Virus record (IMG/VR): IMGVR_UViG_2671180454_000010
Length of the DNA stretch: 8,465 nucleotides
From: a virus
Taxonomy: Duplodnaviria > Heunggongvirae > Uroviricota > Caudoviricetes
Direction: 5' to 3' (one strand)
Program-made: the position numbers and the translations under genes
Shown here: positions 2,425 to 4,752 of the stretch, one piece after another
Layout: each line of letters starts with the position of its first letter
Numbering within the stretch: the stretch's first letter is position 1
The notes under the pieces: model-generated
Seen by the model: only the letters and a program-made list of their open reading frames with translations
Told to the model about the DNA's origin: nothing
Database searches by the model: none

Positions 2425-2496
2425 CTTAATAGAGCACCTTCAACGCCAATACACTTAGAAGATGACTTAACGATTTATTAAAGATGCTCTATTAAG
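2425..2496 (-). promoter_or_regulatory. long-range inverted repeat in the leader of the 236-aa ORF
   Basis: Perfect 12-bp arms CTTAATAGAGCA (2425-2436) and TGCTCTATTAAG (2485-2496) separated by 48 bp, between the upstream hairpin and the ribosome-binding site. Confidence 0.3.
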
Positions 2497-2528
2497 AAAA
2501 GCCCTAAACATAATCTGTGAAGGGCTTT
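2497..2528 (-). terminator. GCCCU/AGGGC hairpin with U-tract (hairpin A, module 1)
   Basis: Stem GCCCT (2501-2505) / AGGGC (2521-2525), extendable to AAAGCCCT/AGGGCTTT; minus-strand transcript continues UUUUCUUAAU. Loop 15 nt. Near-identical to the hairpin at 4768-4791. Confidence 0.35.
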
Positions 2529-2600
2529 GGAGGTTTGCTTATAACGTTAACGAAGTTTCAGGAAAACTTTCTTTAAAAGCTCTGTTTAAAAACTCTTAAA

Positions 2601-2627
2601 GAAAGCCCTAACTCATGATTAGGGCAA
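2601..2627 (-). terminator. GCCCUAA/UUAGGGC hairpin with U-rich tail (hairpin B, module 1)
   Basis: Stem GCCCTA (2605-2610) / TAGGGC (2620-2625) with a 9-nt loop; on the minus strand followed by UUUCUUUAAG. Immediately 3' of the conserved core. Confidence 0.35.
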
Positions 2628-2633
2628 AGCTGT

Positions 2634-2745
2634 AAAGGATTCAATAATGAATGAACAAAGACTTTTTGAGATAGCCTCTCAGACCAACCTGAAAGGCTAG
2701 GACGAAAAGCATTGCACCTTTCCAACTCAGAATATCCATTCATCG
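2634..2745 (-). repeat. conserved non-coding element, copy 1 (candidate structured RNA or leader)
   Basis: 112 bp aligning to 4792..4905 with 4 substitutions and one 2-nt indel. The two copies do not share a reading frame across the indel, so the conservation is not protein-coding. Lies upstream of the 236-aa ORF. Confidence 0.7.
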
Positions 2746-2832
2746 CGCGGGCTAGCTCTTCCGCGCTGGCATTATTAATGCTGACCCGATGAGGTGTACT
2801 GGCAATAGCGGACACTACCATTTGTTCTTTTT

Positions 2833-3651
2833 TTAAGCAGCCATCTGATGATATTTTTCCCTGAAGGCTGCCGGGGAGATATTCCCCAGACGAGAGTGAC
2901 GACGCTGACGATTGTAGAAAATCTCAATGTATTCCCGTATTACTGAGATGGCTTCATCCCGGTTATTAAAACGATAGTGGCTCAGGCTCTCATTTTTCAG
3001 CGTTCCCCAGAAGCTTTCCATCGGAGCGTTGTCGTAACAGTTACCTTTACGCGACATTGATGTTTTCAGACCAGACTGCTCCTGTATGACCCGGTAATCG
3101 TATGCGCAGTACTGTGAACCTCGATCAGAGTGGTGGATTAGCCCGGCAGGTGGGCGCTGGCTCCTGAGCGCCATAAACAGGGCTTTACCTGTCAGCTCTT
3201 TTGTCATGCGCTCTCCCATGGCGTAGCCGACAATTTCGCACGTATAAACATCTTTGATGCCAGCGAGGTACAACCATCCCTCCTGTGTGGCAACATACGT
3301 CAGGTCCGCCACCCAGACCTGATTTGGTGCTGTAGGAGCGAACGTCTGGTTCAGCAGATTTGGCGCAACTGGCAGATTGTGGTTCGAGTTCGTAGTCGCT
3401 CTGAACTTGCGTTTCTGCTTACAGCGTAGCCTTAGCTCCTTACGAAGACGTGCCAGTCGGTCACGACCAACGATGATGCCATTCTCTGCCAGCTCCGTCT
3501 GGAGCCGCCGGGTTCCATATGTTTCGCGAGTGCGGATATGTGCCACCTTAATCTCCAGTTTTAGCCGCTCATCACTTTGTTTTCTGTCTGAGGGTTCATG
3601 CTGTACCCAGTTGTAATAACCGCTCCTGGATACACCAAATACCTGACACAT
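2833..3651 (-). CDS. IS3-family transposase OrfB (catalytic DDE domain), expressed as OrfAB fusion
   Basis: 272 aa from the first ATG. The same frame is open upstream to the A7 slippery site and is -1 relative to orfA. Integrase-like catalytic region typical of IS3-family OrfB (…HSDRGSQYCAYDY…RKGNCYDNAPMESFWGTLK…). Confidence 0.85.
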   Translation of the reverse strand: MCQVFGVSRSGYYNWVQHEPSDRKQSDERLKLEIKVAHIRTRETYGTRRLQTELAENGIIVGRDRLARLRKELRLRCKQKRKFRATTNSNHNLPVAPNLLNQTFAPTAPNQVWVADLTYVATQEGWLYLAGIKDVYTCEIVGYAMGERMTKELTGKALFMALRSQRPPAGLIHHSDRGSQYCAYDYRVIQEQSGLKTSMSRKGNCYDNAPMESFWGTLKNESLSHYRFNNRDEAISVIREYIEIFYNRQRRHSRLGNISPAAFREKYHQMAA

Positions 3652-3686
3652 CGCTTCAATGGGAAATTGTTGTCGCCATTGTTCGA

Positions 3687-3989
3687 TTAACGCGTATTTT
3701 TCAGCGACTCCTGTGCAAAATACGCTGTTGCTTTTTTTAATATATCTCGCTCAAGGCGAGCTTCATTTAACGCCTTACGCAGTTGCAGAATTTCAGATTC
3801 CAGTTCAGCCACCGTGCGGGAACCAGGAGTACCGAGCCCTTTTCTGGCGGCGGTAACCCATTGTCCTAAAGTGCCTTCAGGAAGAGATAATCGGGAAGCG
3901 CCTTCACTGATCGAAAGTTGATTTTCAGGAACCGTTCTGACAGCTTCGGCTTTGAACTCTTTAGAGTAACGTTGGGTTTTTCTGCTCAT
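3687..3989 (-). CDS. IS3-family transposase OrfA (HTH plus leucine-zipper-like region), 100 aa
   Basis: ATG at 3987-3989 with AGGAGC upstream. C-terminus (…ILQLRKALNEARLERDILKKATAYFAQE…) typical of IS3-family OrfA; ends just after the frameshift hairpin. Confidence 0.85.
   Translation of the reverse strand: MSRKTQRYSKEFKAEAVRTVPENQLSISEGASRLSLPEGTLGQWVTAARKGLGTPGSRTVAELESEILQLRKALNEARLERDILKKATAYFAQESLKNTR
3692..3739 (-). promoter_or_regulatory. programmed -1 ribosomal frameshift site of the IS (A7G slippery run plus downstream hairpin)
   Basis: Minus-strand TTA AAA AAA G (complement of T-run 3732-3738) in the orfA frame; slipping -1 reads …SNSVFCTGVAEKYALIEQWRQQFPIEAMCQVFG… into OrfB. A 9-bp stem GCGUAUUUU/AAAAUACGC (3692-3725) starts about 6 nt downstream. 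Confidence 0.6.
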
Positions 3990-4040
3990 TATTAGCTCCT
4001 TCTGATGCCATTCTATTTCAGGAAGGAGTGTCCGTTAAAC

Positions 4041-4652
4041 TCAGGCTACCTCACTAATCAGCTTAGCCAGTCTTGATTTCAGCAAATTAATCTCATTTTC
4101 TCTTGCTTTCATCAGTTTCTCTTTGGCAATTTCTTCAAGCTCAGCTTGTGATTTATCAGCAACAATTAGAGACAGTCGATGTGGTGCTCTGACAGCTCTT
4201 TCTGTACGAACAACTCTTTGACCTTCTGGTAAATCTGCAATCACTTTACCAATCTCTACAGGGTCATACCCCCAACCGTCACGGTCTAGTCGAGAGAAAT
4301 AAGCATAAGAATTGGTTTGAAGCTCCATCGAAATAACCATTTCGTCAATTTCGTCTTCAAGCTTGGACTGAATTTTCTCGTAAACACTTCTCATTGCTTC
4401 TTGAGAGTCTTTAATAGCTTGGAAATATCGGCGTTGTAGCTTCAACTTCAAATCAAGTTCACACCGTTCGTTCATAGAAAAATCAATTTCAACTCTTGGA
4501 ATCTCGAGTGGTTCTGGTGGAATATATGGACCTTTATTTACTTCGTGTGATTCCCGCCAAGCTCTATCAAAAGATTCACGCAAAGTTAATTCGTGAATAT
4601 CAAGTGCACTTGGTCTGTGTTCGATAAGCATTTCATGTTCATTTCTAATCAT
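4041..4652 (-). CDS. hypothetical acidic protein, 203 aa (paralog of 1687..2397); 3' end formed by the IS terminus
   Basis: ATG at 4650-4652 with AAGGGGTGA 5 nt upstream. Homologous to the 236-aa ORF (see above). The last 4 codons and the stop (4041-4053) lie inside the IS terminal inverted repeat, and the protein is about 30 residues shorter at the C-terminus than its paralog. Confidence 0.6.
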   Translation of the reverse strand: MIRNEHEMLIEHRPSALDIHELTLRESFDRAWRESHEVNKGPYIPPEPLEIPRVEIDFSMNERCELDLKLKLQRRYFQAIKDSQEAMRSVYEKIQSKLEDEIDEMVISMELQTNSYAYFSRLDRDGWGYDPVEIGKVIADLPEGQRVVRTERAVRAPHRLSLIVADKSQAELEEIAKEKLMKARENEINLLKSRLAKLISEVA

Positions 4653-4691
4653 TCGTTCACCCCTTAGTTTATTTGTTATTTCAATTTATAG

Positions 4692-4752
4692 AAGCACACT
4701 CAGCAATCAGAGGTGAAGAGTCTGACTGAACAAGAACCTGCCAAGTGTGCTT
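4692..4752 (-). promoter_or_regulatory. long-range inverted repeat in the leader of the 203-aa ORF
   Basis: Perfect 9-bp arms AAGCACACT (4692-4700) and AGTGTGCTT (4744-4752) separated by 43 bp; same position and geometry as the 2425..2496 repeat but unrelated sequence. Confidence 0.3.

Follow-up and report, generated by a model that had tools for sequence, protein, structure and literature searches.

Why do two leaders of unrelated sequence each hold a pair of long-range inverted-repeat arms, in the same geometry, between a terminator-like hairpin and a ribosome-binding site? The question is raised by a stretch of DNA of 8,465 nucleotides from a virus of the Caudoviricetes (IMG/VR record IMGVR_UViG_2671180454_000010), which was analysed whole and is referred to here as the window. 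In it, the two leaders, modules 1 and 2, precede two copies of a gene for a protein of 234-236 amino acids. A preliminary description of the arms had proposed either a long stem in the mRNA leader that could compete with the terminator, or paired half-sites for proteins of different specificity. It had been read on the plus strand. The minus strand carries every long open reading frame (ORF) of the window, so the leaders must be read on that strand; there the description holds, and the order is terminator hairpin, U-tract, stem (which we call S1), Shine-Dalgarno sequence (SD) and ATG. The most informative feature was absent from that description: the loop of S1 is complementary to the gene's own ribosome-binding site. 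We consider it probable that S1 and its loop form a cis-acting translational control element, that is, a switch, or an RNase III-processed leader.

We examined the arms at the nucleotide level. In module 1 they are perfect complements 48 nt apart, CTTAATAGAGCA at 2425-2436 and TGCTCTATTAAG at 2485-2496; in module 2 they are perfect 9-mers 43 nt apart, at 4692-4700 and 4744-4752, both as reported before. On the minus strand the upstream arm starts inside the U-tract of the GCCCU...AGGGC hairpin (2525-2501 in module 1, 4791-4768 in module 2), and 5-15 nt separate the end of the downstream arm from the SD, which places the arms, as had been described, between the hairpin and the ribosome-binding site. 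Both repeats proved to be longer. In module 1, perfect pairing in fact spans 15 bp (2422-2436/2485-2499) and the repeat extends to 22 nt at 91% identity; with G·U allowed on the minus strand, S1 comprises 23 bp (2499-2477/2444-2422) without a mismatch, 20 of them Watson-Crick and 3 G·U. The module 2 repeat extends to 27 nt at 81%, and S1 has 28 positions (4765-4738/4706-4679), namely 22 Watson-Crick pairs, 4 G·U pairs and 2 mismatches. The elements concerned, with the translation initiation region (TIR) that follows each stem, are these:

2501-2525, minus strand: module 1 terminator-like hairpin T2, GCCCUUCACAGAUUAUGUUUAGGGC, then UUUUCUU
2477-2499, minus strand: module 1 (type A, see below) S1 5′ arm, UUUCUUAAUAGAGCAUCUUUAAU, beginning in the T2 U-tract
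2422-2444, minus strand: module 1 S1 3′ arm, GUUGAAGGUGCUCUAUUAAGAAA
2395-2416, minus strand: module 1 TIR, with the SD region ACACUUAGAGGA (2416-2405) and the ATG (2397-2395) of a 236-aa gene (1687-2397)
4768-4791, minus strand: module 2 terminator-like hairpin T2, GCCCU...AGGGC, then UUUUUCA
4738-4765, minus strand: module 2 (type B) S1 5′ arm, UUUCAGUUUUUAAAAGCACACUUGGCAG, beginning in the T2 U-tract
4679-4706, minus strand: module 2 S1 3′ arm, UUGCUGAGUGUGCUUCUAUAAAUUGAAA
4650-4664, minus strand: module 2 TIR, with the SD AGGGGUGAA (4664-4656) and the ATG (4652-4650) of a 203-aa gene (4041-4652) truncated by an insertion sequence (IS)

Chance pairing was assessed with 40 dinucleotide shuffles of the window, at spacers of 20-70. 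The longest perfect arm was 15 in the window and at most 12 (mean 9.5) in the shuffles; arms of at least 12 bp numbered 1 against 0.05 expected, and arms of at least 9 bp 7 against 1.9. The module 1 repeat is beyond chance by itself, and the module 2 9-mer alone is not; the module 2 stem is real on the strength of its extended pairing, its fold energy and its conservation among orthologous leaders. Module 1 folds at -35.6 kcal/mol on the sense strand (z = -9.2) and at -21.4 kcal/mol on the antisense strand, module 2 at -32.1 (z = -4.1) and -27.7 kcal/mol, respectively. An Rfam scan of the whole window at E <= 1 returned nothing relevant, the sole match being to a plant miRNA model (25.8 bits against a gathering score of 90; E = 0.34).

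The window is a member of a family of ~11-kb Escherichia islands, and the preliminary description had suggested looking for the same arrangement at orthologous loci. About 125 orthologous leaders were collected in two ways: protein similarity was used on viral contigs, and an invariant 20-mer of the upstream leader on viral as well as metagenome contigs. They were reduced to 80 unique sequences running from the last terminator to the ATG, 78 of them usable. They fall into five sequence types: A, which includes module 1; B and B′, with module 2; C, the commonest; and D and E, represented by one locus each. S1 was found in 78/78 usable leaders and in all five types, with 23-30 bp, 0-2 mismatches and loops of 26-37 nt. 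The apparent exceptions (L067, L096 and L103) were start-codon miscalls or a chance match to the 20-mer.

When 20 representative leaders were aligned by MAFFT, blind to structure, and the alignment was passed to RNAalifold, S1 was recovered, with compensatory changes on both sides in 12 of 20 pairs; 98.7% of the S1 cells in this alignment pair. None of 500 column shuffles matched the observed paired fraction, the counts of double changes or the covariation score, and pairing fell to 39-48% when the partner was slid by 1-3 columns. The earlier suggestion that different sequence in the same architecture reflects structural covariation of a long mRNA-leader stem is thus borne out. An invertible DNA segment between the arms was also considered and was rejected, as the orientation of the loop is identical in all 78 usable leaders.

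We then turned to the loop. Without exception, the loops of the five types hold a stretch of 9-13 nt, the anti-SD, that matches the SD of the same leader, as follows:

2445-2476, minus strand: module 1 S1 loop, 32 nt, the anti-TIR, in which UCUUCUAAGUGU (2462-2451) pairs with the SD region
4707-4737, minus strand: module 2 S1 loop, 31 nt, with the anti-SD UUCACCUCU at 4717-4709
Type A: anti-SD UCUUCUAAGUGU, SD region ACACUUAGAGGA
Type B: anti-SD UUCACCUCU, SD region AGGGGUGAA (AGAGGUGAA in relatives)
Type C: anti-SD (U/C)CUCUUCUAAG, SD region CUUAGAAGAGG
Type D: anti-SD CUUCUAAGUGU, SD region ACACUUAGAGG
Type E: anti-SD AUUCACCUC, SD region GAGGUGAAU

In types A and B the loop also matches the AUG and the first codons. 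In module 1, GUCAU (2466-2462) pairs with AUGAC, and AAAUCGUU (2476-2469) pairs with codons 3-5, AACGAUUU, so that the loop-TIR pairing of type A totals about -25 kcal/mol; in module 2, complementarity to the first codons lies in the 5′ part of the loop. When the loops were shuffled, the trials out of 5,000 that reached the observed score numbered 2 for type A, 222 for B, 13 for C, 34 for D and 16 for E. Loop and SD also change together. Relative to type A, type C has 2 nt inserted in the loop and a matching 2 nt in the SD, and there are two basic anti-SD solutions in different registers on the SD core, one extending 5′ of GAGG and the other 3′ of it. In a matrix of loops against TIRs, cognate pairs gave -18 to -24.5 kcal/mol, compared with -6 to -18.5 kcal/mol for non-cognate pairs, and the covariation of loop and SD defines three specificity groups: A/D, C and B/E.

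Folding energies were calculated with a nested model. In the minimum free energy (MFE) structure of all five types, the terminator hairpin and S1 stand side by side and the SD is unpaired; the S1 state is 5.5-10.5 kcal/mol more stable than a state forced to form the loop-SD helix, which we call S2. By contrast, when the 5′ arm was omitted, the MFE structure paired the loop with the TIR. Predicted SD accessibility was 0.51-0.68 in the full leader, 0.00-0.03 without the 5′ arm, and 0.39-0.62 in the product expected from a cut in the middle of the stem. No more than 0-22 nt link the base of S1 to the SD pairing, and the length of this linker differs even among leaders of one type. Because it is so short, we infer that complete S1 and complete S2 probably cannot coexist: they would alternate, or S2 would form only with the AU-rich lower half of S1 open. 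Geometrically, the linker looks too short to accommodate both a helix of 23-30 bp and S2 unless that lower half melts.

These features suggest how the element may work. The 236/234-aa gene is the first of a tail operon, followed by those for a 69-aa protein, the tape measure and the baseplate. The leader would be transcribed from a strong sigma-70 promoter and would pass one or two intrinsic terminators, after which S1 would form, its 5′ strand starting in the U-tract of the last terminator. With S1 closed, the anti-TIR would be held about two helical turns away from the SD, leaving the SD free (ON). If the 5′ strand were missing or occupied, or if the AU-rich lower half of S1 were opened, the loop would bury the TIR (OFF). 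The two RNA states would be mutually exclusive, with S1 acting as a clamp that keeps a built-in anti-TIR off the TIR, and loss, occupation or partial opening of the clamp would silence the first gene of the tail operon. The rest of the operon would probably be silenced too, by polarity through the missing translation. E. coli RNase III accommodates ~22 bp of double-stranded RNA and prefers 5′ untranslated regions as targets (PMC6212723). With its 23-30 bp, S1 has the length of near-continuous double-stranded RNA, about 20-22 bp or more, expected of an RNase III substrate, and a double cut within it would detach the mRNA from its anti-TIR, making the ON state irreversible. We infer that the two states are used in vivo, that a cue switches between them and that RNase III cleaves the stem.

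Several observations weigh against such a switch. In the nested model S1 always wins, and a natural condition that would give the OFF state was not identified. The S2 score of module 2 is only marginal, being reached in 222 of 5,000 shuffles. The five types are not independent, since CUUCUAAG is common to A, C and D and UUCACCUC to B and E; because the types share these sequences, the S2 covariation amounts to two or three independent solutions. The anti-SD of types B and E (UCACCUC) is simply a 16S-like sequence, for which any strong SD would be a partner, the SDs of the tape-measure and 69-aa genes among them. No sigma-70-like promoter was found on either strand from T2 to the ATG, including between the arms, by a scan that is blind to promoters for phage-specific factors. 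RNAduplex runs of the 5′ arm on the upstream leader sequence, made for 77 leaders in search of a conserved partner, predicted sites that were not consistent (median shuffle p of 0.26). Finally, the leader sequences contain no conserved leader peptide.

Related designs were tried and set aside. One in the manner of T4, with an internal promoter, was rejected for want of a promoter between the arms on either strand, and a four-element, attenuator-like switch for want of a conserved upstream partner of the 5′ arm; an 8-nt match of the leader segment D1 (described below) to the arm core, AUGCUUUU, was judged to be chance. A leader peptide translated through the 5′ arm was rejected as well: in types A and B, short ORFs begin at an AUG of the T2 loop, but these have no SD, and some T2 variants lack the AUG.

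A fuller version of the switch can be put forward only tentatively. It would be a self-contained, three-part riboregulator in which a clamp arising from the terminator U-tract brackets the anti-TIR, translation of the tail operon is licensed by an intact read-through leader or by RNase III processing, at least three orthogonal loop/TIR classes exist, and the apical hairpin may also have trans effects from one co-resident island to another.

Could S1 instead be a mere RNase III processing or stability hairpin, separating an abundant terminated leader RNA from the operon mRNA, with a loop-SD match of no regulatory meaning? Its 23-30 bp of nearly uninterrupted double-stranded RNA are of the size that the enzyme accommodates, the predicted MFE structure already leaves the SD free once S1 forms, and the anti-SD of types B and E is a generic 16S-like sequence. 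However, no loop of the five types lacks an anti-SD, and this changes with the SD, down to the matched 2-nt insertion that distinguishes type C from type A, and in types A and B the complementarity reaches the AUG and early codons. Such conservation is not expected of an inert loop, and we regard this explanation as unlikely.

Another explanation starts from the same loop. The apex of S1, once released (for example by RNase III), would be a trans-acting antisense RNA whose target is this gene's TIR in related islands, whether co-resident or incoming, and the groups A/D, C and B/E would be immunity or incompatibility classes. A long stem with a TIR-complementary loop of 31-37 nt is indeed the usual architecture of antisense regulators; the three groups of loop and TIR are orthogonal; and genomes can hold several islands, in up to 3-5 places, the window itself holding two types. 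However, each mRNA would carry one antisense molecule, aimed at itself, a separate promoter or terminator for a small RNA was not found, and the stable fragment is an assumption of the explanation. We consider it quite improbable.

The preferred reading, a cis-acting element, requires that the arms act as RNA. The preliminary description had alternatively proposed paired half-sites for proteins of different specificity; such DNA sites could be bound by a protein that is dimeric or loops the DNA and that differs in specificity from variant to variant. Covariation alone does not decide between RNA and DNA because the arms of palindromic operators also change together, and the islands encode several small helix-turn-helix (HTH) proteins. 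RNA is favoured because of a G·U bias, the folding of the sense strand, the variable spacing and a stem type that is not linked to the protein type. Positions of S1 that are not Watson-Crick pairs are mainly G·U on the coding strand: the alignment has 53 G·U cells and 5 other non-pairs, and G·U exceeds A·C by about 3-4 to 1 per type when the mismatch columns omitted by RNAalifold are counted. The sense strand folds better than the antisense strand in both modules. The spacing of the arms is not constant even inside type C, with loops of 26-37 nt overall, and the arms, at 23-30 bp, are far longer than half-sites. Stems of type C occur with both protein types and precede proteins of three N-terminal classes (MENLY..., MTNDIY... 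and MAIRDENEM/MSIRNEHEM). The symmetric half-sites at fixed spacing, covarying with a cognate protein, that mark a palindromic operator were therefore not observed, and the loop-SD complementarity would be meaningless for DNA binding. Thus, the evidence points to arms that act as RNA, and half-sites in DNA are very improbable.

That S1 is an antiterminator competing with the GCCCU/AGGGC terminator, as the preliminary description had allowed, is hardly tenable: although its 5′ arm overlaps the terminator U-tract in every type, S1 shares only that U-tract and no nucleotide of the T2 stem, both hairpins formed side by side in the MFE structure when each leader was co-folded with its terminator hairpin, and S1 cannot affect termination because intrinsic termination is decided at the U-tract, when the 3′ arm, at least 55 nt downstream of it, has not yet been transcribed. 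The alternative helix of an attenuator would share nucleotides of the terminator stem and be complete before the U-tract, and S1 does neither.

How does this leader compare with known systems? Genes e, soc, 49 and I-TevI of phage T4 have leader structures that sequester the ribosome-binding site; there, the inhibitory hairpin is the stable fold of long transcripts, an internal late promoter yields short translatable mRNAs, and the leaders guard against untimely expression from read-through transcription (reviewed in PMC3014915). As in these four genes, a phage-type gene has its SD and/or AUG matched by a complementary segment of the upstream leader. Unlike in T4, however, the sequestering helix is not the favoured fold here, S1 being predicted by the nested model to keep the SD open; the leader lacks an internal sigma-70-like promoter; and the anti-TIR is enclosed by a stronger helix, S1.

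Phage lambda offers a second comparison, as the leader of its N gene reportedly carries an RNase III-sensitive hairpin, said to have been described by Wilson et al. in 1997 and 2002 (both cited in PMC5725501). The R sites of T7 are RNase III processing sites (PMC8708148). In both, as here, the SD of the first gene is separated from an upstream RNA element by a long stem; S1 fits the ~22-bp substrate of RNase III, and cleavage would uncouple the upstream RNA from the TIR. The present leader differs from that of lambda N in that a nut or BoxA-like element is absent and that repression would come from a built-in anti-TIR, not from an N-Nus complex; its cleavage by RNase III is putative.

The logic of three elements is familiar from translational riboswitch-like switches and from engineered cis-repressed riboregulators and toehold switches, in which an anti-SD opposes the SD and a third element decides the pairing. 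The element described here shares that logic and the existence of orthogonal sequence classes, but its third element is a helix that brackets the anti-SD and does not pair with it, and it is not in Rfam. The late leader of lambdoid phages consists of the promoter pR′, the 6S RNA and the terminator tR′. Like it, the island has a strong, constitutive-looking promoter, a structured leader of ~190-330 nt and intrinsic terminators before structural genes; unlike it, the island has no identified Q-like gene or qut site. To our knowledge, lambda has no clamp or anti-TIR element after tR′. An anti-TIR loop locked in a long helix that starts in the terminator U-tract is a departure from the textbook examples of T4 and lambda. 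What emerges is a strongly covarying, uncatalogued and probably cis-regulatory RNA in an uncharacterised island. Its compact design suggests how satellite-like elements may hold structural genes silent until the right moment, and it offers natural orthogonal SD/anti-SD pairs.

Upstream of the stems, the leader contains a promoter, a repeated segment (D1) and terminators, arranged as follows:

4952-4980, minus strand: sigma-70 promoter TTGACA-17-CATAAT, with 11/12 matches and TG-extended, driving leader and operon
4792-4905, minus strand: leader segment D1, copy 2, conserved
2634-2745, minus strand: leader segment D1, copy 1, conserved, 95% identical to copy 2, its promoter lost
2625-2605, minus strand: extra terminator T1 of module 1, GCCCUAAUCAUGAGUUAGGGC
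2604-2593/2579-2568, minus strand: follower hairpin H1, 12-13 bp, UUUCUUUAAGAG/CUUUUAAAGAAA, its 5′ arm being the T1 U-tract

A second -10-like element follows the promoter. D1 (~112 nt) is non-coding and structured, its copies lie in different reading frames, and the region has no Rfam match. It contains a GAAAG...CUUUUC hairpin and a second hairpin for which relatives have an unrelated yet complementary stem plus loop (GGCCUUUCAG/CUGAGAGGCU, GACCUCU/AGAGGUC and GGCCUAUUUAG/CUAGAUAGGCU). The leader that bears D1 ends at one or two terminators. T2 is a GC-rich hairpin with a U-tract immediately after it, as expected of an intrinsic terminator; our terminator scan flagged T1, and T2 escaped it solely for its loop of more than 8 nt. 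T1 and H1 (2567-2625) occur in module 1 only, not in module 2, and look like a degenerate duplicate of the T2-S1 unit minus the loop; in some relatives, L091 among them, T1 is joined directly to S1. Because T1/H1 is built in the same way as T2/S1, anchoring in the U-tract is a recurrent design of the leader, though it is not antitermination. In many relatives (L003, L004, L008 and L013) the T2 loop carries an insertion of ~30 nt, AAGGATGATTCCATGAATATCCGAATCACC, which is itself an inverted repeat and lengthens the terminator hairpin.

The island family supplies the context. E. coli 4012 (NZ_CP103626) has an intact copy between tonB and yciI, other copies occupy other chromosomal sites, and L129 holds the island at 14940-25347. 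The gene order begins with a large serine recombinase, a baseplate protein, a 688-aa tape measure, a ~70-aa ORF and the 234-236-aa protein, and continues with the ~430-530-bp non-coding leader, small ORFs, an HTH/Rep-like protein and a small recombinase. Tape measure and baseplate are present, and the island has no capsid or terminase genes. The leader sequence is present in 458 of 5,426 complete E. coli genomes (about 8%), and some genomes have more than one island. The family of the 234-236-aa gene is confined to Escherichia and Shigella plus a few Salmonella; a search of 185,579 species genomes for homologues beyond Escherichia gave 3 loci only, all of them Escherichia, and megablast against phages and plasmids gave matches limited to IS ends and a ybaV fragment. 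Literature searches returned nothing specific to the island, which resembles a phage satellite and may be an undescribed kind of tail-encoding satellite.

The preliminary description had called the two genes of the window paralogs. Two gene copies are indeed present; they are 25% identical to each other, and each island has a single copy. They are allelic variants from two islands, brought together by an IS-mediated rearrangement, and the window is a chimera of parts of two related islands, which accounts for the two copies. It probably belongs to a Shigella-like genome rich in IS elements. The junction is marked by these features:

2790-4053: IS3-family element of 1264 bp with terminal inverted repeats and without a target duplication (flanks cga and cta), which we take to be IS600-like
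2746-2789: fragment of the chromosomal ybaV gene, 44 bp, between the IS and the first leader

Owing to this rearrangement, module 1 lacks its promoter. The second gene (4041-4652) loses its C-terminus to the IS, its last 4 codons being IS sequence. At the junction of leader and ybaV there is a 10-bp microhomology, CCATTCATCG (2736-2745).

The regulated 236/234-aa protein has no Pfam, PHROG or NCBIfam family, and the "transposase" label given to it by NCBI was rejected for lack of a supporting model. Its AlphaFold model is mostly helical (pLDDT 65); a BFVD structure search gave 0 matches at E <= 0.001, and tblastn against 50,697 phage records returned nothing. The tape measure of the island is 28% identical to its closest match, in Felix O1-like myophages, and the 236/234-aa gene sits where those phages have tape-measure chaperone genes. 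The TIRs of the tape-measure and 69-aa genes (1303-1319 and 1663-1679) share UUAAAGAGGUGA, the same extended SD as in leaders of types B and E, and the type B loop (4709-4728) is thus complementary to the tape-measure TIR as well; this match is probably just to a generic strong SD.

Several other features were seen in the window. A hydrophobic ORF of 25 codons, MGLIIAWTLLGLFVGCIINNAVNKN (5005-5082, minus strand), starts at a TAATG overlap with the stop of a 107-aa gene and finishes a short way upstream of the leader promoter; L001 has a conserved version (MGLIIAWTALGLFVGCWVGNTVNKN) and L002 a divergent one, and the product could be a small membrane peptide, holin-like or toxin-like. A 28-nt sequence, TTGTCAACAGCTTTTTAACAGGTTGATA, occurs at 4974-5001 and, 79% repeated, at 6341-6368. 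It overlaps the -35 element of the leader promoter, recurs in the divergent-promoter region upstream of a 96-aa gene and, being partly palindromic, is a candidate shared operator. In the intergenic region upstream of the 107-aa gene, a long imperfect inverted repeat (25 nt, 76%; 5469-5547, minus strand) is followed by a CCUCAGA...UCUGAGG hairpin; this candidate was rejected, its fold not being significant (z = -1.9). Lastly, three direct repeats, GGTGACATTTTGTC, lie at 7378-7436 with a spacing of 22-23 bp, between ORFs of 124 and 129 aa that form a single 313-aa HTH/Rep-like protein in relatives; they look like the iterons of an origin inside a rep gene.

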